Assembly (NCBI GenBank): GCA_051362555.1
Contig: CM120641.1
Span: 49,172,401-49,236,400 of the forward strand
DNA length: 64,000 nucleotides
Direction of reading: 5' to 3'
Origin: Lingula anatina
Lineage: Eukaryota; Animalia; Brachiopoda
Part shown: positions 1-62,561 of the stretch, piece by piece
Position numbering within the stretch: the first letter of the stretch is position 1
Layout: each line of letters begins with the position of its first letter
The notes under the pieces: generated by a model
The model's database searches: none
The model's input: the letters and a program-made list of their open reading frames with translations, nothing else
Told to the model about the DNA's origin: nothing
Translations under genes and position numbers: made by a program

Positions 1-3000
1 AACATTGCTAAGAAACATCTCCAGCCAGTGCCATGGTTTATTGATAAGATTATCCAGGTTTGTCACTTGTAGCATTGTCATGAAAACAGCTTTCCAAAAA
101 TGTAACTGAGGATAGATGTATACTTCTATTCCAAATTTTATCAGTGGTTTGCCATTCAGATGCATTTACCCATTTTAAAAATTGGACTAAATTCTGTTAA
201 CTGTGGCAGAGATTTTTAAAGAATGGCAGTATTTTATACTTGTATGTCTTTCTAAAAAAATTCTTTGTTAATCCTTAGGTCTATGAAATGATCCTTGTGC
301 GTCATGGTCTGATGATAGTTGGTGAGCCTCTTGGAGGGAAGACGTGTTCCTACCAGGTGCTGGCAGATGCCCTCTCTGACCTCCATGCTGCTGGGATGAT
401 GGAAGAGAACAAAGTGATGTACCGCATCATCAACCCTAAAGCTATCACCATGGGACAGCTGTATGGATGCTTTGACCCTGTGTCACATGAGTGGTCTGAT
501 GGTAAGATGATGACTTCAACTTTCTTTATTACCACACTTCTACTTAACTAAAAAAACTTAAAGTGTCTAGTTCCTGTTAAATTGATTTAAGGTATGAACA
601 TGTTTAATATCAGTGGGACTGAAAACAATGAGAGCTGTATGTGTCTTTTCTCAGGTGTTCTTGCCAACACATTCAGAGAGTTTGCAGTGAACCCTAGTGA
701 TGACAGGAAGTGGATTCTGTTTGACGGTCCTGTAGACGCTGTCTGGATTGAGAACATGAATACAGTACTGGATGACAATAAAAAGGTGGGTAACTGACAT
801 ATATTGACATATGTATACTGACACAACACAAGAAGACATGAGCACAAGTAACACAATATGATTGAGAACATGAACACAGCACTGGATGAGAATAAGAAGG
901 TGGGTAACTAACATATACTGACAAAACACAAGAGCAAATGCATCCAAATGATTACAATATCACATCAAACACATTTTCTTACTTCCTTTCAGTTATGTCT
1001 AATGAGTGGTGAGATCATTCAGATAATTACAATATCACATCAAACACATTTTCTTACTTCCTTTCAGTTATGTCTAATGAGTGGTGAGATCATTCAGATA
1101 ATTACAATATCACATCTAACACATTGTCTTCCTTCCTTTCAGTTATGTCTAATGAGTGGTGAGATCATTCAGATAATTACAATATCACATCTAACACATT
1201 GTCTTCCTTCCTTTCAGTTATGTCTAATGAGTGGTGAGATCATACAGATGAGTAACACCATGAACCTGATATTTGAGCCAGCAGACCTGGAGCAGGCGTC
1301 TCCAGCCACAGTCAGCAGGTGTGGAATGATCTACCTGGAACCTCATCAGCTGGGATGGAAGCCCTCTAAGCAGTCTTATATGGAGCATGATCTCCCTAAG
1401 AACCTGACAGCTGATGAGTCTGGGATGGTGAATGATTTGTTTGAGTGGCTGCTGGACCCCTGTCTGGAGTTCCTGAGACATGAGTGCAAGTTCTACATCA
1501 ATACATCCCAGATCCACCTGGCCCGCTCCATGATGAGGCTGTACACCTGTCTTCTGGATGAGATAGCTCTGTCTGGTACTGAGGGACAGGAACAGTTAAC
1601 TAGCCAACAGGTAAAAGGATATTTTCACGCCAAAACTGTGACATCAGTTTTGATTTCTGAAAAAAAAAAAGGAATTATGTTTGGATTGCAAGGGTTTAAC
1701 TGATGTTTTAAAAACATTGACCAAGAATAAAACTTCCACATAATCTATGATTTTATGTTAATCAAATAATTAATGAGAAATCTCTGATAATCTGTGTGTT
1801 TCAGATCACCCTGTGGCTCCAGGGGTTGTTTTTGTTTGCCCTGGTCTGTAAGATAATTAACAATCTCTGATAATCTGTGTGTTTCAGATCACCCTGTGGC
1901 TCCAGGGATTGTTTTTGTTTGCCCTGGTCTGTAAGATAATTAACAATCTCTGATAATCTGTGTGTTTCAGATCACCCTGTGGCTCCAGGGGTTGTTTTTG
2001 TTTGCCCTGGTCTGGACTATTGGAGGGACTTTGACTGGAGACAGCAGGAAGAAGTTTGATGTCTACTTTAGAAACCTGATCAGTGGCAGTGATGAAGCTC
2101 ACCCTAAACCAAAGAGTGTCAAGATCACTAAGGTATGGAAATACACATTGTTTATATTGCCAAGATTTGCTTAGACATAAAGTTAAGGTCCACAAGGTAT
2201 TGGCCTCAGTACTGTTAAGAGCACCATTTAGTCTAATACTGTAAAGACCATCAAACAAAATAAAATAGTCATGTCATGAAGTACCCAAATAAACAGATAG
2301 TTAAGTTATTATAACCAACCAAACTAAGTGAATGAAATGACTTTTGAATAAATTGGAACAGAATGGTTGCAATTCTCTCTTTTAAAAATGATGCCCCAAT
2401 TTGTTTTGTAGAACAACTCTTTCCCAGAGCGTGGCACCATCTTTGACTTTTTCTTTGAGAAACGTGCCAGTGGTATGTGGATAGACTGGCTGGACACACT
2501 AGATAAAGGACTGCTCACTGTGCCTCCTGATGCTAATGTAAGTATCTACACACTGTCACAGGCTCACAGCTAACACACTGTCACACTTAACACACTGTCA
2601 TTGCTAAAACACTGTCACACTCAACATACTGTCAGTGCTAAAACACTGTCACAGCTTACACACTGTCATAGCTAACACAATGTCACACTCAACACACTGT
2701 CACACCTAACACACTGTCACAACTAACACACAATTAACACACTGTCTCAGCTAACACATTAAACTGACTGTATGTTTTACAGTGTCTTATCTGTTCTCTG
2801 TAGACCTGTATGTCATTTGAAATGCTGTGAAAAAATACACAATTCAAGTCACATCATCTAGTTGTATATATATAATACACATGACTTAGGCCATATCTGG
2901 CTACTGAAATGATCTATATTCCAGGTCAGTGAGCTTATCATCCACACTGCTGACACAGCTCGCCAGAAGTTTTTCCTGAACACTTACCTTCACCATCAGA

Positions 3001-6000
3001 TCCCAATGTTGTTTGTGGGTCCTACAGGAACAGGGAAGTCTGCCATTACACAGAGCCACCTGGTCAGCATGCCTAAGGAAAAGTAAGTCAACCACTGGGG
3101 ATATTATGCTGTTTATCACAGTCAAGTAAAATCCAAGTCATGGTCCTTGTAAATAGTGTCTTTGTAGTCATGAGACACAATATTAATTGATTCTCTTCAT
3201 CTTAATGTATTGGAAAAGTGCACAGATGCATGATAACTCCTTATGTGTATATTTATTTATGTAGCATGTATGATACAGTATAAGTCTGTGTGTGTTGGTA
3301 TTATATACAATGTATCATATGACATCCTGTGTGTATGATACAGTATATGTCTGTGTGTGTTGGTGTGTATGATATACAATGTATCAAATGACATCCTGTG
3401 TGTATGATACAGTATATGTCTGTGTGTGTTGGTGTGTATGATATACAGTGTATCAAATGACATCCTGTGTGTATGATACAGTATATGTCTGTGTGTGTTG
3501 GTGTGTATGATATACAATGTATCATATGACATCCTGTGTGTATGATACAGTATATGTCTGTGTGTGTTGATGTGTATGATATACAATGTATCATATGACA
3601 GCCTGTGTATTATATTATTTACTTGATGTTTTTCAGGTACATTCCCAACTGTATGAACTTCTCAGCCCGCACCTCTGCCAATCAGACCCAGGACATCATT
3701 ATGTCCAAACTAGACAGGTATGGAAGCAAGTGCTACTAAACGTTGTCCTTAATGTAACATCACCATTGACATCATCATATCAACAGGTGTAACGTTATAT
3801 CAAAATAATAGTACAAACAGCTAATGATGCTGTATTTCACTCTAGGCGAAGGAAGGGTGTATTTGGTCCTCCCATGAACAAGAAGTGTATAGTGTTTGTG
3901 GATGATCTGAACATGCCAGCCAAGGAGAAGTATGGAGCTCAGCCACCTATAGAACTGCTGCGGCAGTGGATAGATCATGGTCACTGGTATGATGTCAAGG
4001 ATACAACTAAACTCTTCCTCACTGATGTGGTAAGTGGTGTGGTAGGAAAAACACCTGACACACTGTCACACCTGACACATTGTCACACCTGACACACTGC
4101 CACACCTGACATACTGTCACACCTGTCGCAATTTCACACCTGACACACTGTCACACCTGACACATTGTCACACCTGACACATTGTCACACCTGACACATT
4201 GTCACACATAACACATTGAGACACCTGCCACATGCTACAAATCATCAATTCACTTAGACATCACTGATAAACTACCAAGAGAAGAACTTGAATTTTTCCT
4301 TACTGATGTAAAAATTTGTTTGGTAGTATTGATATATTTCTATTAAACATTATATGCACCTTCCTTTCCTTTTATGTTGTTCTGGTGGAGACAAAACATC
4401 TGAATAACTCATATATTTCTGTATATTTCTTCAGCTGCTTGTGTCTCATATTCTACATTACGTTTTTGTGAAGACAAAACCTCTGAATAACTCGTATATC
4501 TGTATCTATTTATTTTCAGCTGTTTGTGTCTGCTATGGGTCCCCCAGGTGGAGGAAGAAATGACATCAGCAGTCGGTTCACACGCCACCTGAACATCATC
4601 TCCATCGACGAGTTTGATGACACCACCATGACCAGGATCTTCACCTCCATTGTGGACTGGCACTTTGCCAAGGGGTTTGAGGCCAGTTTCACCAGAGTTG
4701 GCAAGGTAACCCATCTTTAGAGGATTATAGATTGAATCTTTTATTTACAGATATTGTGATCGTTATTTCACATTCCAGAAAAAGTTTCACACACTATATA
4801 TTTTAAAATTACATATTTATTTATCCTTTTAGTTCAGTGAGCAATAGAGAATATGGTATATGGAATAATTTTATTATAATCTATGGCAGACAGGTGGATA
4901 AATAAGCTGGTAAGTGAGAGATATCTGTGTTAGTTAACTAACCTGTATGCTTGGCGTGTTCCAGATGATGGTAGCAGCCACTATGGGGGTGTACAAGGAG
5001 GCCATCACACACTTCTTACCAACTCCTTCCAAGAGTCACTACGTGTTCAACCTGCGTGATTTCTCACGTGTCATACGTGGTGTGCTGCTCATACCATCAA
5101 CGCACATGCAGGATACAGACAAGCTCATGCGCCTGTGGGTGCACGAGGTCTATCGTGTGTTTTATGACCGTCTCATTGACAGCGAAGACAGGTGAGTCAC
5201 GGAAATGTTAACAGTTGGCAAATCATCTTACTGGCAATTTTTTCTTATTTTGAACAATTATTATGAAAATAATATTTAATATGTTTTATGCGGAAGGCAG
5301 ATTAATGAGAATTTTAACACTTCTATATACAGAGTGCTGCAGTGAAGAAGATATATATGCTAATAATTTGATAAAAAGGGGAATTTCTCTTCTGATAATT
5401 TTACTGTTGACATTTGCTCTGTCATCAGAAGCAGTTTATGTCTCCATTTTCTTCAGGCTGACTTTCTTCAACATTGTGAAGACCACCTGTCAGGACTACC
5501 TGAAAGTCAGTGTGGACAAAATCTTAAGCCACCTGTCACCCTCTGGCAAGGTGATAGATGACCACATCCGTAGCTTGTTCTTTGGAGACTACATGGATGA
5601 GCAGAATAAGGTGTATGATGAGGTGACTGACCTCAAGGAGCTCACAAGTACTATAGAGGGGTAAGAGAACAATGTGCGATGTGGTGACTGACTTCAAAGA
5701 GCTGACATGTACTTTACGAGGGTATATGGAACAGGCAATCAGTTATTAGTGACATTTGTTAGGTCAGCTCATGGTGTATCTGATGAGCAAGCTGTTGTCT
5801 GTTATTGATGTTGTCATTTGGTTGTTTTCAGTTCATTATTGTTTTAACACTACTGTCCACATGTATACTGCTGTTTCTCAGTTTTCTCAGCATGGGACAT
5901 TTCCCAGGTTATACTCCAAACACATCTTGTGTAAATGTTATGATATCTCACAATATTTTTCATATGTTGTATCAGCAATTGTGTTTGTTAAAGTGTCTAC

Positions 6001-9000
6001 AGTGTCACTGTCCACAGTGTTAATGTGAAAACAGTGTCACTGTCCACAGTGTTAATGTGAAAACAGTGTCACTGTCCATGGTGTCTGTATCCAGTGAACA
6101 CCTGGTGACACACCTGTCCAGCACTGTCCTCTCTCCCTCACCTGCACCTCCCATTTCAGCTACCTGGATGACTACAACTCCATCAGTAAGGCTCCCATGC
6201 ACCTGGTCATGTTTAAGTTTGCCATTGAACACATATCCCGTGTCGCACGTGTACTCAAGCAGGATAACGGGCATGCACTTCTTGTTGGTAAGTTACACAT
6301 AGTAGAAATGTTTTATATGCTGTCTTTTTATTTTGGATTATATGAACTATCCTTGAAACAATTGTCATTCATGTAAATTATTTTAAGGGATAACTTTGTT
6401 ACAACCTTCAAACGTTGCCATGGTTTTCAGAGTTCAGTTGGCCTAGTAATGTGGTTAATGGTGTGTTAGATGTGTGACAAGTGTGATATTGTACTAGATG
6501 TGACAAATGTGACAGATATGAATGAGTCAGTTGTGCCAGTTAGGACAGTATATTGATATAACTCTCTCTGTACACTAGGTATTGGAGGCAGTGGTCGCCA
6601 GAGTGCAGCTAAGCTGGCCACAGCCATGGCAGAGTATGACATGTTCATGATTGAAATCACCAAGAACTACAGCAGAAATGACTGGAGAGATGACTTGAAA
6701 AAGGTACCTGGCTGATAACATCTTTTTAATTGTCTATTGTATTTCCTGCGTACATTAAAGCTTCATTAGTAATTATATAACAACATACAGTTATCAATTA
6801 GCCAGGGACAGGGTCCTTAATTAGATGCCATTCTGGCAGTGATCAGTGTGTGTTGTCTTTCAGCTCCTCCTGAAGGCAGGCGGGGACGGCAAACCCACAG
6901 TGTTCCTGTTTGCTGATACTCAGATCAAAGATGAATCCTTCATGGAGGACATTAGTATGATCCTGAACACAGGGGATGTACCCAACCTGTACCCCTCTGA
7001 TGAGAAAGCTGAGATCATAGAGAAAATGCAGACAGTGGCCAGAAATGAGGGCAAGAAGATGGATGCTACTCCTCTGGCCATGTACAACTACTTCATAGAC
7101 AGAGTGAAACAGAACCTTCACATTGTGCTGGCCATGAGCCCCATAGGAGACGCCTTTAGAAACAGACTGAGGATGTTTCCTTCTCTCATTAATTGCTGCA
7201 CCATTGATTGGTTCCAGGTAGGTAGAACTGTGTGTTAGCTGTGACAGTGTGTTAAATATGACAGTATGTTAGCTGTGACATTGTGTTAAATACGACAGTG
7301 TGTTAGATGTGACATTGTGTTAAATATGACAGTGTGTTAGCTGTGACAGTGTGTTAAATATGACAGTATGTTAGCTGTGACAGTGTGTTAAATATGACAG
7401 TATTTTAGGTGTGACTGTCCTTTATGTGTGACAGTGTGTTGCATGTAACAGTATCTTAAATGTGACAGTGTGTTAGACAGACAGTGTGTTAGATGCGACA
7501 GTAGTCTAAAAAATATAACAATTGTTGTATATTCCAGGCTTGGCCAGAAGATGCTCTAGAGATGGTGTGGTGCTATGTTATATAAGAGAATGTGTTATAT
7601 GTGACAGTGCACTAGAAAATATAACAATTGTTGTATATTCCAGGCCTGGCCAGAAGATGCTCTAGAGATGGTGTGGTGCTATGTTATATAAGAGAATGTG
7701 TTATATGTGACAGTGCACTAGAAAATATAACAATTGTTGTATATTCCAGGCCTGGCCAGAAGATGCCCTAGAGATGGTGTGGTGCTATGTTATATAAGAG
7801 AATGTGTTATATGTTACAGTGATCTAGAAAATATAACAATTGTTGTATATTCCAGGCTTGGCCAGAAGATGCCCTAGAGATGGTGGCTAACAAGTTCCTG
7901 GAGGAGGTAGATCTAGAGGACAGTGTGAGGACCAGTGTGGTCTTCATGTGTAAATATTTCCATGAAAGTGTCCGAAAACTCTCAGAAAGGTAACCACTGC
8001 TTTTTTCTGCTTCATGGAAGGCAGCATTGTTTTATATTTGCTTCTTAGTAGAGATGTGTGAAATCATCTGCATTTTTCATTTCATGTTTTCTTGCATGCT
8101 GAACTGTATATAAATCAATGTAACAGTTGAATATATAACAATTTTCCTGTTATTTTCCTCAGATTTATGGACGTTCTCCGCAGACACAACTATGTAACAC
8201 CCACCTCTTACCTAGAGCTGATATTGACCTTTAAGAAACTGCTGGGGGTAAAACAGGAAGAGATCTTAACACTGAAGAACAGATACATTGTGGGTCTTGA
8301 AAAGTTGGAGTTTGCTGCCTCGCAGGTAGGGTATTTAGAATGCATATCTTTATTGTTTGCACATCTGTGGAAATATTGAGAGTTTACAGTTTTATATATA
8401 GGTAGCAATAGTAAATCTAACATATTCTAGAACAGTTCCAGTGCCCATCTTCAGCCTTTATAATGGCATATTTTGATATGATGAGCTTTTGGTGTTATTC
8501 TTGTCCATATGTTTCCTAGGTCTCAGTGATGCAGGTAGAACTATAATGATATGTCAAGTTTTTTGGTGATATTCTTGTCCATATGTTTCCTAGGTCTCAG
8601 TGATGCAGGTAGAACTACGTGAGCTGCAGCCAGAGCTTGTCAAAACATCAGAGGAAACTGACAAACTGATGACAAAGATTGAACAGGAGACAGTGGATGT
8701 GGAGGCCAAGAAAGAGGTGAGTGACAGAAGAAAGAAGAGGGTTGATAAGAATAAGAATTTGTATTTAAGCTAATGACTTCAGTTTCTCAACAGATTTTGG
8801 ATGCTACAACATATAAATATTTGACCTTTTATGACTTAAAGTAATTGATTTAAAATAATGTACTTTTTTTTAGTTCTTTTTAATTCAACATTTTCTCCTA
8901 ACCTTATTGTTGTTGATTTAGAATGAATTGATAACCACACTGTACACATTGCACTTTTTGTAGAATGTTGCTGTTGACTTGGAGAGTATTGATAACCATA

Positions 9001-12000
9001 ATGTAAACATTTCACTATTTCTAGATTGTTGCAGCTGATGAGGCTGTTGACTTGGAGAGTATTGATAACCATAATGTAAACATTTCACTATTTCTAGATT
9101 GTTGCAGCTGATGAGGCTGTTGCTAACAAAGCAGCTGCAGCAGCTCAAGCCATCAAAGATGATTGTGAGAGTGACCTTGCTGAGGCCATCCCTGCCCTGG
9201 AGGCCTCCATCCAGGCCCTGAACACACTGAAACCTGCAGATATCAGCATGGTCAAAGCCATGAAGGTGAGGCTGGAGATAGAAAAATGGGGAGTAGGAAT
9301 AGGGAATAGAATATGGAGCCAAGGTCTACAGTGGGGCTGTAGTTTGAAACAAGTTCACAAATTCCTTAATATCTTTCGAGGTCCACACAGTCTTCATCAA
9401 TTTTTATGACTGTAGTCAATTTTGGGATGGAGTCAGTGCCTAAGGCTTTCCCATGTGTATCTAAAGATCCCCTTTGTGTATATACAAACCTGTCTCCCAG
9501 AATTCTAGATCATATGATATATTTCCAGAACCCTCCCGCTGCAGTCAAACTGGTCATGGAGTCGGTGTGTGTGATGCTGGGAGTGAAGGCTGAGAGAAAG
9601 CCAGACCCTGGAGGCTCAGGAAAGATGATCCAAGATTTCTGGGGACCCTCTCAGAAACTGCTGGGTGACATGAAGTTCCTGGATAGACTGAAGACCTATG
9701 ATAAGGACAACATTCCACCAGCCATCATGAAGAATATCAGAGAAACGTAAGCTTTAGAAGAATATTAGTGTAACAAGATATAAATAAAAGATCAATTGAA
9801 AGTGAGTTTAACTTAATGAATTCAAAAACAGTGAAAAAAATGTAGGTATTGTATATGTGTATTGTGTTGTATTACAGCTATATCAGCAACAAGGAGTTTG
9901 ACCCCAAGTTAATCAAGCAGGCATCCACAGCCTGTGAGGGTCTGTGTCGCTGGGTGAAAGCCATGGATGTCTATGACAGGGTGGCCAAAGTGGTGGCACC
10001 AAAGAAGGCCAAACTGGCTGAAGCCGAGGGCGAGCTGGCAGTTCAGATGGAAAAACTCAACACCAAGAGAGCACAGCTTAAAGAGGTAGGGTCAGAGGGC
10101 ATTAGATTGAACAGTATTTCTTACCCTGTACAACCAATACAATCTGTATTGCTGTGGGATGAACTGTATGTCTCACCAACACAATCCACTGTCACACCCA
10201 ACACAATACACTGTCACACCCCACACAATCTAAATGATTGTGGGTTTAACAAAACTGTAAATAATAAATGTAAAACATGTTAACCCTTAATAGTATCAGC
10301 ATAAATATTGTATACAGTGTCATTTTAGTTTTAAGTATTCCCAGGAGTGTTAAGTTGTAATATGTAAAGCACTAATCGAGGAATACTTTCCTTCCAGGTG
10401 GTAGACAAGCTTCAGGCTCTGAATGATGAACTGGAGGCAATGACACAGAAGAAGAAGGAGCTGGAAGACAATATAGATCTCTGTGAGAAGAAACTGGACA
10501 GAGCAGAGAAGCTGATTGGTGGTCTTGGTGGTGAAAAGACTCGGTGGACAGAAAATGCCCGTGTTCTTGGCGCCACCTATATTAATATCACAGGTGATGT
10601 ACTGCTGAGTAGTGCGGTGGTGGCATATCTGGGGGCATTCACTGTGGACTTCAGACAGGTAACACTGCAACCAGTTCTGCATATACTTACTTTTTTTAAG
10701 TGAGATGAGTATTGTATTAACCAAGACAAGTAATATTGTGTGAGATCAGACAAGTTGTACTTGGCATTGTGTTAGATGAGACTTGTTGTACTTGACATTG
10801 TGTTAGATGAGACAAAGCACTGCACTGAATGTGTCTGTTGCAGGATGTGACCAAGGATTGGCATGACCACTGTGTGGAGAAGGAAATCCCATGTTCTCCA
10901 AACTTTTCTCTTAATGTCACTCTTGGGGAGCCGGTCAAGATCAGGGCCTGGAACATTGCTGGCCTTCCAGTGGACAGCTTTAGTGTGGACAATGGTATCA
11001 TTGTGGCCAACTCCCGCCGCTGGCCACTCATGATAGATCCACAAGGTACTGCTCTGTTCTTACTTTTTGCAATGTGGACCAAGGTTTTAAATAGCTAACA
11101 CACATACAGATGTCTGTGACAGGATTATCTGCAGTTTTCTATGGCTTATTGTAACACATTCATCTCTATCAGTTCATGGAAACAATCCCAATCACTGTGT
11201 ATGGTTCTGATATGGTTGTTACTGTATGTTTTCTTCAGGGCAAGCCAACAAGTGGGTGAAGAATATGGAGAGGGAAAACAATATGAAAATCATCAAATTG
11301 TCAGATCCTGGCTATGTGAGAACCTTGGAGAATTCCATCCAGTTTGGACACCCAGTTCTACTGGAGAATATAGGTGTGTTCTGGATAACTAATGCAGTAG
11401 AATACAATAGGCTTGATAACTAATATAGAAGAATACAATAGGCTGGATAACTGATATAGTAGAATACAATAGGCTGGATAACTGATGTAGTAGAATACAA
11501 TAGGCTGGATAACTGATGTAGTAGAATACAATAGGCTGGATAACTGATGTAGTAGAATACAATAGGCTGGATAACTGATGTAGTAGAATACAATAGGCTG
11601 GATAACTAATATAGTAGAATAAAATAGGCTGGATAACTAATATAGTAGAATACAATAGGCTGGATAACTGATGTAGTAGAATACAATAGGCTGGATAACT
11701 GATGTAGTAGAATACAATAGGCTGGATAACTGATGTAGTAGAATACAATAGGCAGTACAGCTGGTGATCAGATGACAATGCTATTAAATATTAGTGTTCT
11801 ATGCTGCAAACCTGAATATCTCCAACATATAGGTAATGTATTATTACCATGGGTCACTTTGTTAGTATCCTTGTTCTCAGTGCACCCTAGCAGTAGTTTA
11901 ACCGTTTCTAAGTGCTGCCATCTATTGTGTATTTCCAGGAGAGGAGCTGGATCCCATCCTTGAGCCAGTCTTGCAGAAGCTGACCTTTAAAGTTGGTGGT

Positions 12001-15000
12001 GTAGAGATGATGAGACTGGGAGAGAACATGGTGGAGTACTCTCAGGGCTTCAAGTTCTACATGACCACCAGGCTGAGGAACCCACACTATATGCCTGAAG
12101 TCTCAGTCAAGGTACAGCTCAGTGTGAACACTGTTTGTTTTCATTGAAATGATGCTACATATGAGGGGAATTTTATAAGCATTTTATTTTATCTACAAGG
12201 TAGATATTCATGTGATTGTCTGTGTTTTACAGGTGTGCTTACTGAACTTCATGATCACTCCTAAGGGTCTGGAGGACCAGCTGCTGGGTATTGTGGCTGC
12301 TAAGGAGAAGCCTGAGCTGGAAGAGAAGAAAAATCAGCTTGTCTTGGAGAGTGCTGCCAACAAAAAGCAGCTCAAGGAAATTGAGGACAAAATTTTGGAA
12401 GTGCTTTCTAGTTCAGAGGTATGTAGGTCAAGCAGTAGAAAAAGAGCACTTGTTTTATAAGTTGAGATTTTTCATGACACGTTTTTTTTACCTTAACTCA
12501 AATGGCAGACCCAATCTTTGCTAAAAACAGTGAAGTGAACACAGTGAATATGTTCACATTTGTACTGATTTCAGGGCAACATTCTGGAAGATGAGACAGC
12601 CATCAAGATCCTGTCCTCCTCCAAGACTCTCTCTGAGGAGATCTCAGCCAAGCAGGAGATAGCTAATGTCACAGAGAAAGAGATAGATGAGACAAGGAGC
12701 GGGTATCTCCCAGTGGCTGTTCACTCCTCCATACTGTTCTTCTGCATATCAGAGCTGGCCAACATAGAACCTATGTACCAGTACTCACTGACCTGGTTCA
12801 TCAACTTATACCTACAGGTAAGAGCTGGTTCTACTGGTACAATACAACATAGAACCTATGTACCAGTACTCACTGACCTTATTTGAGTAGCTATAAATGC
12901 ATACTGTCGTTATTCTAAAAATGACAATGTTTATTCTTTCAGTCTATCATCAATAGTGAACCAGCGTCTGAGTTGGAGGAAAGAATTCATAACCTCAATG
13001 ACCACTTCACCAACAGTATATATCGTAATGTCTGCCGTTCACTGTTTGAGAAGGACAAGCTACTCTTTTCCTTTGTGCTCAGCATTGGCATTCTGAATGG
13101 AAGGTACAGTGAACATACCTACTTGGTTTGTGTAATGGTGCTGCTGTGCAATAAAACAAACATATACATGGTTTATAACTCCTGGCTACAATGGCAAGAA
13201 ATAATGTCTTTGTGACTGGTAATCAATTGTATATATTATACTGCAACCTGACTTGATGTCTCATTTAAATTTTCAGTGGTAAAATAGATGACCAAGTATG
13301 GCGTTTCCTGCTGACTGGTGGTGTTGGCATGGATAACCCTCACCCCAATCCTGCCCCAGAGTGGCTCACAGAGAAATCATGGTCAGAGATTGTCAGGGCA
13401 TCAAATCTACCCAATCTACAGGGCCTCTTTGAACGTAAGTAGTAGATATGTGACATGATGAAATTACGTATTCTGCAGAAGAATGTGATGTATTATATAT
13501 GATTCATGAGAGTTGTAACTGATTGTCTTGATGGTTAATTTCACAATAGTAATTAGATCTTGCATCATTTCAGATGTGCGTGACAACATTGGTGAGTGGA
13601 AGAAGATGTATGACTCCCCCAACCCCCATGAGTTCAAGTATCCATCCCCCTATGACACCCTAGGGGGTCTGGACAAGATGGTGGTCCTCAGGGTGTTACG
13701 TCCAGATAAGATTGTCCCTGCTGTTCAGGAGTTCATTGTGGACAATCTGGGCCAGTCTTATATAGAGCCTCCGACCTTTGACCTGGCCGGGTCATTTGCT
13801 GACTCCCATTGCTGTGCCCCCCTGATCTTTGTGCTGTCCCCAGGGGCGGACCCCATGGCTGCTCTGCTGAAGTATGGGGAGGACAGAGGCTACTCCACGG
13901 GGAACAATAAGATTCAGACCATTTCTTTGGGACAAGGACAGGTAAGACAGAGGAAACTTCAGAGTATGCTGTGAGACTTCTGATACTATATTCCTTGGTC
14001 ATAGTGAATGTATATTTAAAAAAGCAACAACTGTCCTTCAACAACTACCTCTTCTGTGGTCTATTTAACTTTGTTAAGTCTCTGTGGTTTAAAATATTTT
14101 ATTACTTCCGTAGGGTCCCATTGCTGCCAACATGATAGACAATGCCATCAAGGATGGGAGCTGGGTTGTCTTGCAGAACTGCCATCTAGCAACTAGTTGG
14201 ATGCCCAAACTGGAGAAGATTTGTGAAGAGGTACTAATGCAACTTAAATTCAAAACAAAGCACTTGATTAAACAGTGGTGCACAATTGTAATGTTTCTTG
14301 GTAATTTTCAGAAAGTCATCTCTTTAAGTTATTATACATTTTGTGGTTACTACATGTATGAATTAAATTATCATTCTTCCAGACCATAATTCCTGAGAGC
14401 ACTAACCCAGATTTCCGTCTTTGGTTGACCAGTTACCCCTCCAATGACTTCCCTGTGGCCATATTACAAAATGGTGAGTAGAAGTCTATCAGTAAGTTAT
14501 TGTGCTGGCATTATAGCATGGTGGAAATATAAATGAAAAAATCCCTTGTTATTTGACTCTTTCTGTTGTGTTTTTAGGTGTAAGGACACATTAATGTCTT
14601 GATATTTATGCTGTCTGTGTTGTGGTTTCTAGGTGTAAAGACACATTAATGTTTTGATATTTATACTGTCTGTGTTGTGGTTTCTGGGTGTAAAGACACA
14701 TTAATGTTTTGATATTTATGCTGTCTGTGTTGTGGTTTCTAGGTGTAAAGACACATTAATGTTTTGATATTTAAGCTGTCTGTGTTGTGGTTTCTGGGTG
14801 TAAAGACACATTAATGTTTTGATATTTATGCTGTCTGTGTTGTGGTTTCCAGGTGTAAAGACACATTAATGTTTTGATATTTATACTGTCTGTGTTGTGG
14901 TTTCCAGGTGTAAAGATGACCAATGAGCCTCCTAAAGGATTGAGAGCTAACCTTCTGAGGTCATACCTCAATGACCCAATCTCTGACCCTGCCTTCTTCA

Positions 15001-17933: not shown

Positions 17934-17997
<64 letters not shown>

Positions 17998-18439
17998 ACT
18001 CCCCCTTGATTTTACCTGAGTGTTGTGTGGTTAATGTTAATAACAAGGTCTGTTGTATAAAGAGACAGAAAGAAAGGGCAGTGTTATTCGTTCCAATCTT
18101 GATTTTAGCTATGTCAGAGTTGTATAATTTATGTTTTGACAGGGTCTGTTCCTGGAGGGAGCACGCTGGGACAGAGAGAAGATGTTGCTGGCCGAGTCAC
18201 ACCCTAAGATTCTGTTTGACACTCTGCCAGTCATCTGGCTGAAGCCCGCCAAGATGGACAGCATTGTGGTAGAGAACAGCTATACCTGTCCAGTGTACAA
18301 GACCAGTGCTCGCAGAGGGACACTGTCCACCACAGGTCACTCCACTAACTTTGTCCGCTATATTGAGCTGCCCTCTGACAGGCCACAGAAACACTGGATC
18401 AATAGGGGCGTGGCCTCCCTCTGCCAGCTGGATGACTAA
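1..18439 (+). CDS. DNAH3: Axonemal inner-arm dynein heavy chain, DNAH3-like; 5'-truncated by the window, about 42 GT-AG exons from AAA2 to the C-terminus
   Basis: Spliced exons give dynein motifs: [31 protein letters not shown]|[43 protein letters not shown], stalk/[43 protein letters not shown], and C-terminal [19 protein letters not shown]. The YLNDPISD and [10 protein letters not shown] wording favours DNAH3 over DNAH7/12 (from recall). AATAAA near 18997 and 19188. Confidence 0.92.
951..1250 (+). repeat. 75-bp x4 tandem repeat spanning a dynein acceptor
   Basis: Unit = intron 3' end + TTCAG + first 33 nt of exon. AGs end at 992, 1067, 1142 and 1217 (functional). Confidence 0.95.
1779..2013 (+). 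repeat. 83-bp x3 tandem repeat spanning a dynein acceptor
   Basis: tctctgataatctgtgtgtttcag|atcaccctgtggctccagg... AGs end at 1804, 1887 and 1970 (functional). Confidence 0.95.
3270..3610. repeat. 69-bp intronic minisatellite, about 5 copies
   Basis: Unit tatgatacagtatatgtctgtgtgtgttggtgtgtatgatatacaatgtatcatatgacatcctgtgtg; ends about 25 nt before the acceptor at 3636. Confidence 0.9.
7510..7885 (+). repeat. 106-bp x4 tandem repeat spanning a dynein acceptor
   Basis: aatataacaattgttgtatattccag|gcytggccagaagatgcyctagagatggtg; AGs end at 7537, 7643, 7749 and 7855 (functional). Confidence 0.95.
11380..11753. repeat. 31-bp minisatellite, about 12 copies, starting just after a dynein donor
   Basis: Unit tagaatacaataggctggataactgatgtag follows exon end gagaatatag|gtgtgttctggataact. 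Confidence 0.9.
14571..14916 (+). repeat. 55-bp x6 tandem repeat spanning a dynein acceptor
   Basis: Acceptor positions 14577 (TAG), 14632 (TAG), 14687 (TGG), 14742 (TAG), 14797 (TGG), 14852 (CAG) and 14907 (CAG, functional), each followed by gtgtaaRga. Confidence 0.95.
17936..17996. repeat. (GA)n microsatellite in the last dynein intron
   Basis: Direct reading. Confidence 0.95.
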
Positions 18440-23118: not shown

Positions 23119-23189
<71 letters not shown>

Positions 23190-29350: not shown

Positions 29351-29484
29351 TAGATACATTTTAACTAATTTGTCTGAATTTATATGCTAATCACATTCAA
29401 ACTAAAACTACAATCAATGGTTCACTACAACCTGTTATAAAACATTTTTGAGATTCCCCCTACCCTATTTTCAGTGAAGCAGCG

Positions 29485-43392: not shown

Positions 43393-43441
<49 letters not shown>

Positions 43442-44716: not shown

Positions 44717-52566
<7,850 letters not shown>

Positions 52567-52908: not shown

Positions 52909-55900
52909 ATGTTCATTTCTTCGCTCTTCAGCGGAATTACAAAGTACTTTGTCAGCCAGACAAGAAGTCTGGTAAGACTGTCAAAGGATAAAGTCGGTGT
53001 AATAGGTGTCCCTTCCTGCAAAGGACAGGTAAGCAACGATTGCGAGGACTTTTTGTAGGAACGCAGTTTCTTGTATTTGAAGTCGAGTAAGGCGTGAAAA
53101 AAAAGGGAAACGTACAGTGTTAGAAAGAAAGAGCAAATAAGTTTTATAGCACTTGATTTGAGCGTCGTCTGATTATCTTTGTGAGTGTATTTACACTGGT
53201 TATTTGGTTTCTGTTTCATGTTTTTTATGGTTATTTGGTTTCTGATTCATCATGTGTTTTATGGTTATTTCCGCGGGTTTCTGAATCATCATGTTTTTTA
53301 TCTTAGTTCAAGGTTCACAGGATGTATATACAGTACAGGGCTTAGTGTGTTAAGTTTACTGCAATTTATCTTTGACACAGATTATATTTACTTAGATGCT
53401 ATTGATAAATGGTTTCACTGCAGGACAGCTATATGGCATTGTATCATTTTTATAATTTACATGGATCAGAAGATTCATTAAAGTATTTAATATATGTAAC
53501 AATTGCCCAAAGTGTGTCCAGTGAACCCATTGATAAACATTATTTTTAATACATTATATTAAATGCATTATATTATATTATATTATATTATATTATATTA
53601 TATTATATTATATTATATTATATTATATTATATTATATTATATTAAATACATCATATAAAATGCATTATGTATAATTTTATTTTATTTGGTTTTTAATTC
53701 CAGAGTGCAGGCGGAGTACAACATGGACCCAAGGCACTAAGACAGGCGGGCATTATTGACAAACTGACTCAGTTAGGTATGAAATAAGTCAATATGTCTT
53801 CAAATGATCCCATATCAAATTTATTGTGTAGATTGAGAACCATGTCATGATGTGTTATTAAAATATCAGAGAGACTATAATTAAAAAGAAGAATATTTGT
53901 TTGTGCTTTGTTGACCATCAGTGATTGTAGAGAATTTTAATTCTTTAAAAAGAAAAAGTTATTGAATAGGGTTTAATATATTTTACATTAACTGGCTAGA
54001 ATTAACAGTTCATTGGGAAAACCAACAAAGAATCATTTAGATAATTATTTAAAGGTTGTATGTTTTGAGCCTGATAATATTGAAAAAATTTTAAGAGTTT
54101 GCTGCTATTGCCCGAAGCTAAGTTTGTAAACTTACCCAGAGAGATAACAATCTTCTCGGGTGCAAAATGGGTGACAAAAGGAAAAAAAACAACAACAACA
54201 ACAAGGAAGATGTAAACCAACGTCTCTGGAACCTACATGTATGTGTTAACTTCATCTTTGTTTTACTTAATCTAGGTGTAGAGGTTTATGATTATGGTGA
54301 CTTGGTATTTGAACAGTTTGATGATGACACACCTATTCTGGGTCTGAAGAACCCTAAGAACATTGGACTGGCAGCTAAAAAGGTAAAACTATGTGTACCT
54401 GTATTTTGTGATTAATTCTTTGTAATTTACATTGACTGAGCTTATGTATTATATGAATGCAGTTATCAGTGAGACAGGGAGATTACTGTGCTATAACATA
54501 TGTTGATTTCTTTCTTGATGTAAACAATTAATAATTCTAGTTTACTTTGATTGAACTGAAGGACATGATATATTGTTTTGCATGGTATGAGTTTGAATAA
54601 TGTTATTCATATCTCTAAGACGGTTGTGATAACATATATTACAATTGTTATATGTGTATGTGTGGAGATCAGCATATATAACAATATGTGTGTTTTTGTG
54701 TGCGTATGTGTAGAGAACAGGGCACTAACATATTACAATCTATCAGATATCAGATCAGGTGTCCAGAGTGATCAAGGATGACCAGATAGCGCTGACCCTG
54801 GGGGGTGACCACAGTCTCTCCATTGGGACCATCCACGGTCATGCTGCTGCAGAGAAGAACATATGTCTTGTGTGGGTGGACGCACACGCTGACATCAATA
54901 CCCCACTCACCTCACCATCAGGCAATGTCCACGGGATGGCACTGTCCTTCCTGGTCAAAGAACTGAAGGAGTACATACCACAAATCCCTCACTTTGAATG
55001 GATTAAACCTTGGTAAGTTAGACACACAGTAACCCACATGTTATGAAAGCAGAGTATGATTTGGATAATTTGGATAATTCTCATATACACAGAAATTTTA
55101 GTGAAGTTGAAAGGAGTACACGTACCCCCCCCCCCCCCCCCCAAGTAGTCCTGTTCAAACTTACCACCCTTTTGTTTGACCCCTCCTGACTTTTTTTGTG
55201 AGGAAAAGGTCCACTCAGGGTAAAATTTGATCTAGGAACATGAAGATTTTGTGATTAAAGTTCCATTTTTTCCAATAAAGAACCCCCTCTTTAAAATTAC
55301 TGACCTGATACAAGATGTTATCAGGGGCCACAGTAATGAAAAAAAAAATGTAATTTATATTTTTTAATGTTTGTTACATGAGGTGGTATTTATTCAATCA
55401 GTGGAAGTATTTGGATGATAACATTCACATGTGGGAGGCTAAGATGTATAAGTAGCTGTAAATAATATTTCACATCTAGCAGTTCAAATTTTAATTTCCT
55501 TTGTTTCAAGCTATTAATCCATTAGAGCTTGATGACATGGAGTTACTGGAAGTGCCCGCTACAGTGTCTCTTATTATATATTATATATAAGATATTCTGA
55601 TTGAAAGATACCCAGTATTAGATTTTCTCACAAAAATGAACAAAATTGGGTCTAAACAGAACGGATATCACATGTAGTGGAAGAAAACTAATTGGAAATT
55701 AGAAATGATTCATGTGCTCTGTACAGGAAGAATGTTAGTTGGATCTTTACAGAAATGATACTTATGCTGTGAGCAGGAAGAATGTTAATTGGATCACTAC
55801 AGAAATCATATGTACTCTGTGAATGATTATGAATAGGATCAATATAAAATATATACATGTATTTACATAAAACTGACCTTGTTCACCATCTTCATGTACT

Positions 55901-58900
55901 GTTACAGAACTTGGGTCAAACCAAGATGAAGAAAAGCATCTGAACAAATTGATTGATAATAAATAAATGAAATCACTATGTTGTATATATTGGGTGGCTC
56001 AGAAGAAAAAAAAAATATTGCTAATTTCAAATTTAAATAACTTCAACAATTTAAATAACTTCAACAATTTGAAGTTATTGCATTGAAATTTGAGGTATTT
56101 AAGGAAAATTGCATTTTTAATAATTGCTGTTAATTTCATGACACTTCCTTTCTTAGTTTTTGCACTGAAAAAATTAAAATGTTGAGTCAAAAAATGCTGT
56201 GCCCGTCTATGTGATTTTTGATAGATGTCAGCTAGGTCAGAGATTATTCTTATTTTACAGGGCACTATAGCTGTCATATTAATTTACTGCAGTAATTTCA
56301 GTGCTTATTTCTTTATTTCAGTATTAGTGCCAAGGACATAGCTTACATTGGACTGAGGGATTTAGATCCAGGAGAACTGTAAGTGAAACAGGTTGTGCTG
56401 AACTTGTAAATAGTAAAATCGTGTCCTGAACTTGTCCAGATTTAGTGAAGCTGAATTGCCTTTTTAACTTACTCTACGCAAAACTCAATCCAAAGATTCC
56501 TCAGTTCACACCCACGGGGTAAACATAGGGTTGTACATAGAAAAGATAAGTACACATAATGGCCAGTGATATGGTTTATTAGTCAAACATTGGGTGTAAA
56601 TACATGATGTGAGGTTTTTAGCCAAAAACACTCCATATCTTTTGGAACCTGTATCTGTCTTCTTAATTCTCCCCCCCCCCCCCCCCCAATAACTTGGTCA
56701 AGAACCTGATCCCTGTTGCATATTCAGCTTAATACACTAATAGTAAGTCACACACTTGTTATATTTGGGGGTTTAAACAAAAATTTTAATTACAACATGG
56801 TAATTTACTTTCATTCACCATTACACAAGAAGTCCCATAGTTATACTTTCAAGAACCCTGCAGCTACATTGAGTCACTTCATGTTATTTAAGGACTGTAC
56901 TGATAAAATCTTAATGTCAACCATGGGGATAAAAAATTCTAAATTATTTAAAATTACATAGTTAATTACTTAAACTCAGCATTGCACAAGAAGTCACAAA
57001 ACTACGTACACATTGAAGAACTTTTCAGTGACATTTAGTCCCTCTATGTTACATAATTACTGAAATTGTATAATCTGCCCATGACAAGGTGTGGTTGCTT
57101 TTCTTTTAAAGAAATATTAATTGTTTATCCTGAGAATAAGGTGATGCAGGCTTGAGTAATTGTGTAGAAATATTTTCTCCTAATATGATTTTGAAAAATG
57201 TGTATGTGGCAATTTTGAAAGAAGAGTCAAAATCCTCCATTTTTCTGTCAGCAACTATATAACACCATATTCATTTATAATATTTTGTATTTTTAGGTGG
57301 ATTGTGCGTAACATGGGTATAAGCTGCTTCACGATGCATGAAGTAGACAGATATGGTATTGACATGGTGCTGAGGATGTCCATGCAAGCCATCAATCCAC
57401 AGTAAGTAGACAGATATGGTATTGACATGGTGCTGAGGATGTCCAAGTTAGCCATCAATCCACAGTAAGTATATAGATATGGTATTGACATGGTGCTGAG
57501 GATGTCCAAGTTAGCCATCAATCCACAGTAAGTAGACAGATATGGTATTGACATGGTACTGAGGATGTCCAAGTTAGCCATCAATCCACAGTAAGTTGAC
57601 AGATATGGTATTGACATGGTGCTGAGGATGTCCATGCAAGCCATCAATCCACAGTAAGTAGACAGATATGGTATTGACATGGTGCTGAGGATGTCCAAGT
57701 TAGCCATCAATCCACAATAAGTAGACAGATATGGTATTGACATGGTGCTGAGGATGTCCATGCAAGCCATCAATCCACAGTAAGTAGACAGATATGGTAT
57801 TGACATGGTGCTGAGGATATCCATGCAAGCCACCAAGTTAGCCATCAATCCACAGTAAGTAGACAGATATGGTATTGACATGGTGCTGAGGATGTCCAAG
57901 TTAGCCATCAATCCACAGTAAGTAGACAGATATGGTATTGACATGGTGCTGAGGATGTCCAAGTTAGCCATCAATCCACAGTAAGTAGACAGATATGGTA
58001 TTGACATGGTGCTGAGGATGTCCAAGTTAGCCATCAATCCACAGTAAGTAGACAGATATGGTATTGACATGGTGCTGAGGATGTCCAAGTTAGCCATCAA
58101 TCCACAGTAAGTAGACAGATATGGTATTGGCATGGTGCTGAGGATGTCCAAGTTAGCCATCAATCCACAGTAAGTAGACAGATATGGTATTGACATGGTG
58201 CTGAGGATGTCCATGCAAGCCATCAATCCACAGTAAGTAGACAGATATGGTATTGACATGGTGCTGAGGATGTCCAAGTTAGCCATCAATCCACAGTAAG
58301 TAGACAGATATGGTATTGACATGGTGCTGAGGATGTCCAAGTTAGCCATCAATCCACAGTTAGTAGACAGATATGGTATTGACATGGTGCTGAGGATGTC
58401 CAAGTTAGCCATCAATCCACAGTAAGTAGACAGATATGGTATTGACATGGTACTGAGGATGTCCAAGTTAGCCATCAATCCACAGTAAGTAGACAGATAT
58501 GGTATTGACATGGTGCTGAGGATGTCCATGCAAGCCATCAATCCACAGTAAGTAGACAGATATGGTATTGACATGGTGCTGAGGATGTCCATGCAAGCCA
58601 TCAATCCACAGTAAGTAGACAGATATGGTATTGACATGGTTCTGAGGATGTCCATGGTAGCCATCAATCCATAGTAAGTAGACAGATATGGTATTGACAT
58701 GGTGCTGAGGATGTCCATGTTAGCCATCAATCCATAGTAAGTAGACAGATATGGTATTGACATGGTGCTGAGGATGTCCAAGTTAGCCATCAATCCACAG
58801 TAAGTAGACAGATATGGTATTGACATGGTGCTGAGGATGTCCAAGTTAGCCATCAATCCACAGTAAGTAGACAGATATGGTATTGACATGGTGCTGAGGA

Positions 58901-61900
58901 TGTCCAAGTTAGCCATCAATCCACAGTAAGTAGACAGATATGGTATTGACATGGTGCTGAGGATGTCCAAGTTAGCCATCAATCCACAGTAAGTAGACAG
59001 ATATGGTATTGACATGGTGCTGAGGATGTCCATGCAAGCCATCAATCCACAGTAAGTAGACAGATATGGTATTGACATGGTGCTGAGGATGTCCATGGTA
59101 GCCATCAATCCATAGTAAGTAGACAGATATTTCTGTCAGCAGCTATATATCACCATATGGATCAGCCCTTGGAGAACATACCTGCAAACATCCAGGTCAC
59201 CACATTGATTTTGACAGCCTGAAAGTAATAGACAGGGAAAACTGGACATTCCAAAGAAAAACAGCAGAAGCTGTACACATCAGGACCAAACAACCAGGCC
59301 TGAACAGACAGGGGGGGTATGATTTACCAGCTATCTACCTCACGGTGCTTCAGAGGGATGCAGAGGAGCCCCGGGGGGAAGGTGTAACAGTTACAACACA
59401 AGGCCAGTGATTAGGGGCAATTGACCTGGATTTTCATTCCAGGTGAAATGACCCTAGTCATTTACTCCCTGATGATGGTGACTGACAGTCACAGAAATAT
59501 TGGAGGTAAAACCTACATATTTTATAAGCTCTTGATAAAAAGAAAAACAATAATTTAAATTGATACATACAGAGCTAATGAAACTCTTCTCTCATAGACA
59601 GATATGGTATTGACATGGTACTGAGGATGTCTAAGTTAGCCATCAATCCACAGTAAGTAGACAGATATGGTATTGACGTGGTACTGAGGATGTCTAAGTT
59701 AGCCATCAATCCACAGTAAGTAGACAGATATGGTATTGACATGGTGCTGAGGATGTCCATGGTAGCCATCAATCCACAGTAAGTAGACAGATATGGTATT
59801 GACATGGTACTGAGGATGTCCATGGTAGCCATCAATCCTCAGTAAGTAGACAGATATGGTATTGACATGGTTCTGAGGATGTCCATGGTAGCCATCAATC
59901 CACAGTAAGTATAGACAGATATGGTATTGACATGGTGCTGAGGATGTCCATGGTAGCCATCAATCCTCAGTAAGTAGACAGATATGGTATTGACATGGTT
60001 CTGAGGATATCCATGCAAGCCATCAATCCACAGTAAGTAGACAGATATGGTATTGACATGGTTCTGAGGATATCCATGCAAGCCATCAATCCATAGTAAG
60101 TAGACAGATATGGTATTGACATGGTACTGAGGATGTCCATGCAAGCCATCAATCCACAGTAAGTCACCATGCACATTGTATAAGAACAGTTGTCAGTATT
60201 GCAGTAGGTGTACTGACCAAGCACATCCACTGCACCTCATTTACATAATGACCTCAATTTGCATAACTGAACACTTTTTGGAAGTCACAGTCTTCAGTGA
60301 GCGCAGTGTGTCAGTCCTTAGTGAGTCTCACAGAGATAAGTGACAGAATCTGAATTTAGTGGAAAGAAGCATATTATGGTGGGTGAAATATTTATGTATA
60401 TTATTTATTAAATGTATTTGTTTACAATGTTCTAATGATGTAAATGCTAGTTTGGCCATGTAGTGACTAAAATTCATTAAGTGAACTGGTGGCAATGCAC
60501 TTCAGTTCAGTTTGGAAGGAAATATATTTCATAGCTCTGAATAATATCTATAGATAGTAAAAAAGGTGTTTGAAATATGAGTTAATTTGTATGCTAAACA
60601 ATTAGTTTTAATTTGTGGTTTTTTGTTTTTAATTCATGGCAGTGTCTGACATTTAGGAAAAATAAAGGATTATGCCCATTGAACTTTGGCTTCTTTATTT
60701 TGTGGCCCTGATGTCAGTGATGAGCTACACGTTGAATTTCAGTATATTTTAGGTAGGCTACCCCCACAACACATTCATATTCACACACACACACACGCAC
60801 ACACACCATGTACACTTAAGTATATTCATGCACATACATATATTCATGCACATGCTTTCATACATTGATTCCGTGAAGTCCCCCACCTCACACATGAGTG
60901 TACATATTCCACATGACATGTATCTGTTCTATTTCCAGTGGAGACAGACCTATCCACCTGAGTTTTGATGTGGACTCTCTAGATCCCAGAATATCTGCTG
61001 CCACAGGGACCCCAGGTGATAATAACACTAATATACAGAAGACTAATTGTTCTCTTTACTAACATCCTGCAAGGCCACTGTAAAGCAAGCACAGCTCTCT
61101 GCCATATAACAATGTGCTGTTAAGATTTTTCCTTTCTCATCTTTAAAAAATTAACTTCAAAAGTTTGGTCTGTATTGTCTTGGACTGCGGACACATTGGT
61201 CTCTATAACTGGGCTCATGTATAGCTACTTGCTGGAAGAATTGGGGACATTCCATACATACTTACATAAACTCTATACTGCTATATCTAACAAAATGCAA
61301 TAAATTTATATCCTTCAAAATGAAGTGTTTTCCAGTATGTAAATAAAGTATAACAGATGTAGATGATAGAAATAGTTTTTTTTTAATTTTCAATTTTACA
61401 GTTTGTTTCAATTTGCAATTTTGATGCAAAATTGATTTGATCTCCTTTAATTTCTTGGTTTTTTTCCTTTTCAGTTCCTGGTGGGTTGTCAGTTAGAGAA
61501 GGCATCTATATTGCTGAGGAGCTGGCAGCTACAGGTAAGACACTGAACTTTTGTTGCTACTTCTTTATTATTCCACACTACAAACTATACGTTGTACATT
61601 GCTGAGGAGCTGGCAGCTACAGGTAATACACTTAACTTTTGCTGCTACTTATTTATTATTCCACACTACAAACTGTACCTTGTACCAACTTTCCTACTCA
61701 AGTTAATGTCACATGTCACATGGTAATTATAAGTTGCTGCAGGCAGTACATTCAGTACAGTTGTTTTATTTCAAATTTTTTGAACATGCAAGTGCCAAAG
61801 ATCAAATGTTCATTTCTGTCCCCCAGGCTGTACAGCTCCACGTTTTTACCTCCATTTGTTTGTTTGTTCTTCATCAGCCTAACTCAAAAAGTTATGGATG

Positions 61901-62561
61901 GATTTTGATAAAATCCCCAGGATATGTCAACAATGGGCTAACTCAAAATTGATACAATTTTAGTGGTGATCCATTAATTTATTTATGGTTAATTATTTGT
62001 TATTTGTCCTGGTGGAAGTCTGCACTCTCTGCTTGGTTTTTTAGTTTTGTACATAATTTAAAATACTTTAGAAAACCGGTAAACTGACAGCATTTGACCT
62101 TGTTGAAGTGAGCCCTTTGCTAGGAACCAAAGAGGAGAGAGATCTTACAGTGTATGCTGTATATATGTTTATATTCTCAGGTTTATCACTTTGTGTGTTA
62201 TTTAATAAACTAGGTAAACTGACGGCAGTGGACCTTGTTGAAGTGAACCCTTTGCTAGGAACCAAAGAGGAGAGAGATCTTACAGTGTGTGCTGTATATA
62301 TGTTTATAATCTCAGGTTTATCACTTTGTGTTATTTAATATACCAGGTAAACTGACGGCAGTGGACCTTGTAGAGGTGAACCCTTTGCTAGGAACCAAAG
62401 AGGAGAGAGATCTTACAGTGTATGCTGCCACAGAGATTGCTAGGGCATGCTTTGGAAAGAAACGAGAGGGCAACATTCCCCCTGGCTACGTGCTGCCTAG
62501 ACCGGACACTACCACAGTGGCGTCCTCAGCTAAATACGGGGAGGAAGTGGAAAGACCATAG
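52909..62561 (+). CDS. ARG: Arginase with probable mitochondrial transit peptide; exons 52909-53028, 53704-53776, 54276-54382, 54747-55012, 56322-56378, 57297-57401, 60939-61015, 61475-61534, 62347-62561
   Basis: GVIGVPSCKGQ, GGDHSLSIG, DAHADINTPLTSPSGNVHGM, YIGLRDLDPGE, IHLSFDVDSLDP..ATGTPVPGG, DLVEVNP; the N-terminus lacks acidic residues and is S/R-rich. Confidence 0.95.
59159..59595 (+). mobile_element. Penelope-like retroelement 3' fragment
   Basis: Translates as SALGEHTCKHPGHHIDFDSLKVIDRENWTFQRKTAEAVHIRTKQPGLNRQGGYDLPAIY, resembling the C-terminal half of the PLE GIY-YIG endonuclease; followed by a hammerhead-like motif and an A-rich tail. Confidence 0.82.
59461..59510 (+). ncRNA. Minimal type I hammerhead ribozyme motif (PLE type), probably with one core-adjacent mutation
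   Basis: Stem I TTTACTCC..GGAGgTAAA, core CTGATGA (59469-59475), stem II GTGACT-GAC-AGTCAC, GAAA (59494-59497), palindromic AATATT; the base before GAAA is A rather than C. Confidence 0.7.
62072..62428 (+). repeat. About 134-bp x3 tandem repeat spanning the last arginase acceptor
   Basis: Copies of GTAAACTGAC..GAGAGATCTTACAGTGT follow CCG (62078), TAG (62213) and CAG (62346, functional). Confidence 0.93.

Follow-up and report, generated by a model that had tools for sequence, protein, structure and literature searches.

Results

In this work we analyse a window of 64,000 nucleotides of the genome of the brachiopod Lingula anatina (assembly GCA_051362555.1, contig CM120641.1, positions 49,172,401 to 49,236,400 of the forward strand; all coordinates below are those of this whole stretch), in whose introns short copies of an adjoining exon end, mostly with its splice site, lie beside the live exon. 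The young ones among these copies, hereafter decoys, differ from their exon mostly at silent positions, and we lean towards seeing in this the mixing of alleles around neutral copies of a constrained exon. Three genes host them, all with models verified by open reading frame. The plus strand at 279..18439 carries 41 exons from the 3′ end of an axonemal dynein heavy-chain gene (2420 amino acids, a single terminal stop, Pfam AAA_8 and Dynein_C), which we take to be DNAH7-like and which has 11 decoy loci in its introns. MCM5 lies on the minus strand at 52566-44720 (16 exons, 731 amino acids, no internal stops, Pfam MCM), with six decoys in its introns, and arginase on the plus strand at 52909..62561 (nine exons, an open frame with Pfam support). 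The best match of the latter is Lingula anatina at 98%, and it differs from L. anatina XP_013421374.1 at one of 350 compared residues, as would be expected of another haplotype of this species or of a very close relative.

To detect decoys, every intron was compared, with no gaps allowed, to the exons on either side of it, and matches scoring at least 11 were retained, the first of the window's two MFS genes (see below) lying outside the scan. A flanking exon is matched at this score in 17 of 66 introns, as against 0-4 matches per shuffle when introns are shuffled, so the decoys are real; score-11 matches at chance level (4296, 16315, 54553, 32057 and 36899) were excluded from the count. In whole-unit alignments the tandem units extend across the splice junction, with an intron part on one side and an exon part on the other, as do those of the mirage minisatellites known from amphioxus. 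An alignable intron part is available for 17 of the 21 tallied loci, that at 12845 having none and those at 5678, 47178 and 62079 little. Donor decoys lie downstream of the live site and acceptor decoys upstream of it. As in mirages, AG or GT is kept at 20 of 21 tested decoy sites; the splice site is lost in the 49498 copy, the 47178 copy and two copies of a 55-bp array.

In the dynein gene, a donor-type decoy of the exon end 746-785 is found at 860..933, with two silent and two non-silent changes. It is followed by a 75-bp acceptor array (951..1249; decoys at 993, 1068 and 1143, live exon from 1218), where the silent ATA>ATT at 1244 is a single event common to the three copies, and by an 83-bp acceptor array (1779..2014; decoys at 1805 and 1888, live exon from 1971), where the silent GGG>GGA at 1991 is present in the second decoy only. 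Two old copies come next, an acceptor decoy at 4379..4446 with one non-silent change (TTT>CTT, 4435) and a donor-side decoy at 5678..5722 with two silent changes, four non-silent ones and one indel. The 106-bp acceptor array (7485..7885; decoys at 7538, 7644 and 7750, live exon from 7856) has two silent sites, GCT>GCC at 7858 and GCC>GCT at 7873, and the presence of all four of their combinations implies exchange. The remaining acceptor decoys are one at 8487..8543, whose 24-nt exon part is identical to the exon; two at 8911..9049, of which the old one (8964) has one non-silent change, ATT>AAT, and the young one (9025) 25 identical nt; a 55-bp array with a 9-nt exon part at 14546..14916, with AAG>AGG (14578) in its oldest copy; and an 86-bp decoy at 16456..16553, with the silent TAT>TAC at 16606. 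At 12845..12879, 35 nt from the middle of an exon recur without a single difference in the intron that follows; this copy has no splice site and looks like a templated insertion rather than a junction duplication.

The MCM5 decoys, all on the minus strand, include an acceptor decoy at 45476..45552 with one silent change (GCA>GCT) in 45 nt and an intron part differing at 8 of 32 positions, and two donor decoys at 45878..46008. The young one of the latter (45968-46004) has two silent changes, GGA>GGG and AGC>AGT, and the old one (45878-45932) has indels and mostly non-silent changes; an apparent GAG>AAG at the margin of this young copy (45968) was discarded as a unit junction, not a codon change. 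A donor-side decoy at 47178..47197, with its donor lost, shows the silent ACT>ACC (47231), and two further acceptor decoys carry non-silent changes, two at the junction in that at 49498..49538, whose acceptor is lost, and CAG>GAG in that at 50038..50080 (the 50041 copy). Arginase, on the plus strand, holds an 88-bp donor decoy (61598..61685) in which all 25 exon-derived bases match the exon, and 135-bp acceptor decoys (62056..62294), an old one at 62079 with its acceptor lost and a young one at 62214 with two silent changes, GTA>GTT (62372) and GAG>GAA (62375), and one non-silent, TAT>TGT. Both decoys have GTT/GAA where the live exon has GTA/GAG, and therefore, by parsimony, these two changes are placed on the live-exon side. 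Lastly, a 63-bp donor satellite occupies 57340..60164 in two blocks, live copy first and followed by 36 decoys, with an in-frame stop at the first junction. Its antisense strand is open for 626 codons (57255-59135, minus), which probably just follows from the repeat period of 63 bp, and its sense frame has stops. At 45476-45552 and 61598-61685 the exon parts differ at 1 of 45 and 0 of 25 positions and the intron parts at 8 of 32 and 6 of 63, a contrast that may point to conversion concentrated on exon parts.

An earlier, sequence-only reading of the window had listed many of these differences, and of the nine silent ones that it gave for loci other than the satellite, eight are indeed there. 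The ninth, TAT>TAC in the 61598 copy, is an error, the TAC at 61595-61597 belonging to the intron-derived end of the 88-bp unit and pairing with 61683-61685. The silent satellite variants (GTG>GTA/GTT, TCC>TCT and CCA>CCT) and the non-silent changes of the 860, 5678 and 62079 copies were likewise recovered. What the list lacked are the seven non-silent changes given above for 62214 (a copy it had as silent only), the 50041 copy, 49498 (two), 14578, 4435 and 8964, and the three MCM5 silent changes of the 45476 and 45968 copies.

For the tally, each combination of site and base was counted once per locus and shared changes once, with kappa set to 2.86 from the reads (210 transitions, 147 transversions); the old, indel-bearing MCM5 copy at 45878-45932 was omitted, and so was that end of the 5678 copy in which its indel lies. 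The 21 loci (694 nt) give 17 silent changes in 193 silent sites and 15 non-silent changes in 501 non-silent sites, that is, a ratio of non-silent to silent divergence (dN/dS, or omega) of 0.34 (95% confidence interval 0.16-0.72), and an omega of 1 is rejected (p=0.002). Omega of 1, which is what the sequence-only reading implied by its premise that neutral intronic DNA ignores codon position, is the wrong null, as it ignores the filtered lineage of the live exon. Comparing a dead copy with a constrained exon sums two lineages, and because one of them is filtered the expectation is about 0.5, as stated for pseudogenes and their parents (PMC5470649).

Divergence of the intron part, counted by eye and independent of the codon tally, served as a proxy of age, decoys with at most 10% of it being taken as young. 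The 11 young loci show 11 silent and three non-silent changes (omega 0.10, confidence interval 0.02-0.38; p=0.007 against 0.5), and the remaining 10 show eight and 12 (omega 0.61). With two shared changes removed, the contrast of 11 silent and three non-silent in the young with six and 12 in the rest is significant (Fisher p=0.016), and the young excess is stable for cut-offs between 5 and 15% (p 0.007-0.017). In the loci with an intron part there are 12 silent changes against 11.7 expected and nine non-silent against 14.7 expected (p=0.08). At five of the 21 loci the exon part is identical to the live exon. The arginase satellite, across its 36 decoys, has six silent and nine non-silent distinct variants (p=0.11 against an omega of 1), the commonest being non-silent. 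The statement that decoys differ mostly at synonymous positions thus holds for the young copies (14 events), and fails for the older ones and for the satellite.

Data from other animals, consisting of two sets of DNA contigs (here X3 and X4) and two RNA runs, cover the stretch 279-10085; changes were polarised by parsimony among copies and other haplotypes. Among the exonic variants listed, 12 of 12 are silent third-position changes, and X3 differs from the window by at least 12 in 575 silent sites (2.1%), in a species with a genome heterozygosity of 1.6% (PMC4595640). Five silent variants of X3 fall at 9944-10025 in one 208-nt dynein exon, four of them within 16 bases, which suggests an old divergent haplotype. 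One X3 contig joins 1778 to 1945, skipping the 166 bases that make up both 83-bp decoys; this array is therefore polymorphic in copy number, as mirages are. An assembly artefact was rejected as the source of the repeats, for contig ends of the other animals at 1011, 1214 and 9093 match the breaks predicted from the repeats of the window.

Two further results concern exchange between exon and decoy. An X4 contig starts at 7859. From the window alone this start would be expected at 7843, and it moves to 7859 if 7858 carries two bases ahead of the live-exon continuation; from this we infer that the silent site 7858 segregates in the live exon of X4. Heterozygosity at 7889, considered as another cause of this start, would add a break at 7890, which the contig lacks. 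In X3, there is a contig end at 775 and a contig start at 752 (the latter taken from the distances to the contig end for 804 and 813), exactly where they should fall if decoy 860 is identical to the exon over 746-781 and departs from it at the silent site 782. The two non-silent changes and one silent change of the window's 860 copy are therefore absent in X3, which is most simply read as an exon-to-decoy conversion. As to the young non-silent changes, the three that could be polarised (from other haplotypes) all fall on the decoy side and seem to be confined to certain decoy haplotypes, as expected of neutral DNA; the RefSeq arginase isoform discussed below, for example, has Tyr in its decoy where the 62214 decoy of the window has Cys.

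Possible mechanisms were compared in a two-locus pair-coalescent model. Copies made within one chromosome and subjected to no exchange have an omega of 0.5, and same-chromosome conversion alone brings it to about 1, for which reason it was rejected as a cause. Young copies made between homologues, or recombined later, start at 0.12-0.15 and rise to 0.4-0.5 with age, and conversion together with recombination gives 0.13-0.43, reaching about twice the allelic silent diversity with no selection.

The use of decoys in splicing was also considered. With 18 of the 21 decoys tested, the protein would be cut short by a premature stop, unlike what is expected from a functional alternative exon, the three exceptions being those of the 75-bp array. 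There, a 263-codon open frame at 912-1703 is continuous with the live exon, and splicing to one of the decoy acceptors would lengthen the protein by 25, 50 or 75 amino acids inside a conserved dynein motor stretch. At the low coverage of the two RNA runs (depth of about 1-10), the decoy-only bin 7473-7799 has an mRNA-sense depth of 0.07 and 0, the bin after it, which includes the live exon, one of 2.9 and 0.52, and the bins 1587-1913 and 8781-9107 one of 0-0.21; no splice joints are found among the matches listed, so rare use of a decoy could escape. The RefSeq arginase isoform X2 (XP_013421375.1, 329 amino acids; not to be confused with the contig sets) uses a decoy acceptor of the 62214 type (window 62214-62346), ends in intron-derived residues and loses the normal C-terminus. 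It is either real low-level use of a decoy or a gene-model error that the decoy has caused.

The rest of the window holds two MFS genes in tandem (20257-23302 and 29485-38887), both of which we take to be SLC46-like, the second with a 7.4-kb intron containing nested inverted-repeat elements (e.g., 35280-38097). By eye, terminal inverted repeats and transposase-like fragments with stops mark 27962-29352 as a degenerate element, presumably Tc1/mariner-like. A 17-bp minisatellite of the TGTCAC type recurs in both orientations just past donor sites (2564-2760, 4051-4233, 5994-6078 and 7230-7502); its copy number is very high, with a genome contig depth in the thousands, and it is likewise abundant in RNA reads. 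The start codons of MCM5 (52566) and arginase (52909) are 343 bases apart, head to head, an arrangement that suggests a shared bidirectional promoter.

Discussion

The silent bias of young decoys probably needs no more than ordinary population genetics, with repeats of a known kind as its substrate. In the explanation that we favour, with some but by no means full confidence, the decoys are unused and neutral and the exon beside them is purified and polymorphic, recombination, unequal exchange or conversion having brought different alleles together. Of the changes arising in the live exon, only silent ones would survive purifying selection, and unequal exchange or slippage would duplicate a short unit spanning its splice site. 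If the exchange is between homologues, template and adjoining exon would be different alleles from birth; otherwise allelic recombination or conversion over some 100 bp, in a large population, could later put a different allele beside the decoy. In both cases the pair would start with, or soon gain, the standing silent variation of the population, after which the decoy would gather mutations of all kinds and dN/dS would climb from about 0.1 to 0.5 with age, occasional exon-to-decoy conversion resetting parts of the decoy. Such a model needs silent exon polymorphism, which is supplied by the exclusively silent exonic variants listed for the other animals, by the silent divergence of X3 and by the heterozygosity of the species. 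The capture of synonymous polymorphism from other alleles, one of the three causes put forward in the sequence-only reading, is the best-fitting one and has some support from reads in the contig ends at 7858 and 860. Gene conversion with the exon, another of the three, probably occurs (the 860 copy), and in the model omega falls only when it is combined with recombination between alleles.

Several observations weigh against this explanation. Over all loci an omega of 0.5 is not rejected (p=0.18, or 0.25 with the satellite added), and the omission of the 45878-45932 copy, mostly non-silent by eye, biases that omega in our favour. The sample is small, 14 young events in one window, and the young excess weakens at a cut-off of 20% (p=0.15). 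Furthermore, silent divergence in the young decoys reaches 10.3%, above both the 4.3% of the paired intron parts (22 of 514; 11 changes against 4.4 expected, p=0.006) and the lower bound of allelic silent divergence. The age cut and the constraint on splice signals both lower the intron figure, and this excess is not fully explained by them. In the other animals, the two sites at which polymorphism shared by decoy and exon could be visible are 7858, where it is inferred, and 1244, where none is seen: contigs of both X3 and X4 start at 1214, implying that their live exon has A at 1244 as in the window, so that the T of the decoys is not seen in the live exon of either. The GGA of the 83-bp array appears to have arisen on the decoy side. 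At 7858 the base itself is unseen and an additional longer decoy could imitate the contig start, and the result at 860 similarly rests on contig ends, the bases themselves being unseen.

It is tempting to dispense with allele mixing altogether and to see in the bias a filter on one of two lineages, helped by luck in a small sample, where copies duplicated within a chromosome would have an omega of 0.5 at every age. We judge this rather unlikely, while granting that the expectation of 0.5 is standard (PMC5470649), that the confidence interval of all loci includes it, and that the silent count of loci with an intron part is almost exactly that expected, with non-silent changes in some deficit. 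Against it, the confidence interval of the young loci ends at 0.38, their age having been judged by intron divergence rather than by the exon part, and the contig ends at 7858 and around 746-781, together with the four combinations of the 106-bp array, need exchange between alleles or between copies. A much less probable alternative is that silent changes of the live exon are favoured, for they could aid the choice of splice site or block harmful decoy-to-exon conversion, and would then spread faster than neutral ones, in a sort of character displacement within one gene. The excess of young silent divergence over that of the intron parts would follow from it, and the A at 1244 common to the window, X3 and X4, as well as the two arginase silent changes on the exon side, are in its favour; yet the identical exon parts of five loci indicate that a base to tell exon and decoy apart is dispensable, splicing around amphioxus mirages is described as normal in PMC3087553, and conversion with recombination gives, in the model, about twice the allelic silent diversity with no selection.

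The third cause put forward in the sequence-only reading, that decoys are sometimes translated, would require them to be spliced in and translated often enough to come under purifying selection of their own, and this we regard as the least probable of all. The RefSeq isoform X2 does end in a decoy, the frame of the 75-bp array is open and nearly all tested sites keep AG or GT. Even so, most decoys would introduce a premature stop and the three others a long insert into a conserved dynein motor stretch, mRNA over decoy-only bins is close to zero at the low depth available, the 62214 decoy has Tyr>Cys in the haplotype of the window, old decoys and satellite are rich in non-silent changes, and the X2 model may itself stem from misplaced short reads.

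Mirage minisatellites are known from amphioxus, in Adh3, the globins BflGb6 and BflGb9, troponin C and PGBD5 (PMC3087553, PMC3902484). No tally of silent and non-silent differences between their copies is found in the passages of these two papers that we consulted (supplements and the original Adh3 paper being outside that scope), and a literature search with few subscription papers and no supplements found neither mirages described from Lingula nor a codon-position bias described for mirage copies. As described in those passages, amphioxus mirages resemble the Lingula arrays in having tandem units of similar size over the 5′ or 3′ exon-intron boundary, many with AG or GT kept, and in a copy number that varies, between haplotypes in amphioxus and in the 83-bp array here, splicing being normal in the former. 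The Lingula arrays differ from them in having a brachiopod host. Somatic length instability has reportedly been seen in the Adh3 mirage. In man, a 37-bp variable number of tandem repeats in intron 7 of F7 has the live donor first and silent pseudo-donors downstream (PMC1557585), a layout like that of the arginase satellite and of the 860, 45968 and 61598 copies, whereas most Lingula decoys are acceptors upstream of the live site and the subject of the F7 abstract is how a donor is chosen rather than codon-position bias.

The comparison with pseudogenes is of more consequence. A pairwise dN/dS below 0.5 between pseudogene and parent is taken as constraint on the copy (PMC5470649). The old decoys and the full set, the latter not different from 0.5, conform to the rule; the young ones, at about 0.1 and with no sign of function, do not, and standing polymorphism, which the rule ignores, has likely added allelic silent variation to them. 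Similarly, polymorphism shared between tandem paralogues is an expected sign of exchange or ectopic conversion (PMC3924832), a sign applied here not to whole paralogues but to exon fragments of 10-80 nt inside one gene, with one putative site of this kind.

If the allele-mixing explanation is correct, a dead copy in a polymorphic species may show a dN/dS near 0.1, and to equate values below 0.5 with function can misclassify young duplicates. If, instead, silent divergence of the live exon is favoured, the many mirage-exon pairs of Lingula would make it directly measurable. No new function is indicated for the decoys. With 21 loci in three genes of this window, mirage decoys are abundant, and under the explanation favoured here each would lie beside its own exon in the same context and so provide Lingula, genome-wide, with a built-in neutral control, which could be used to study the mutation spectrum, the rates of short-range conversion and selection on silent sites.

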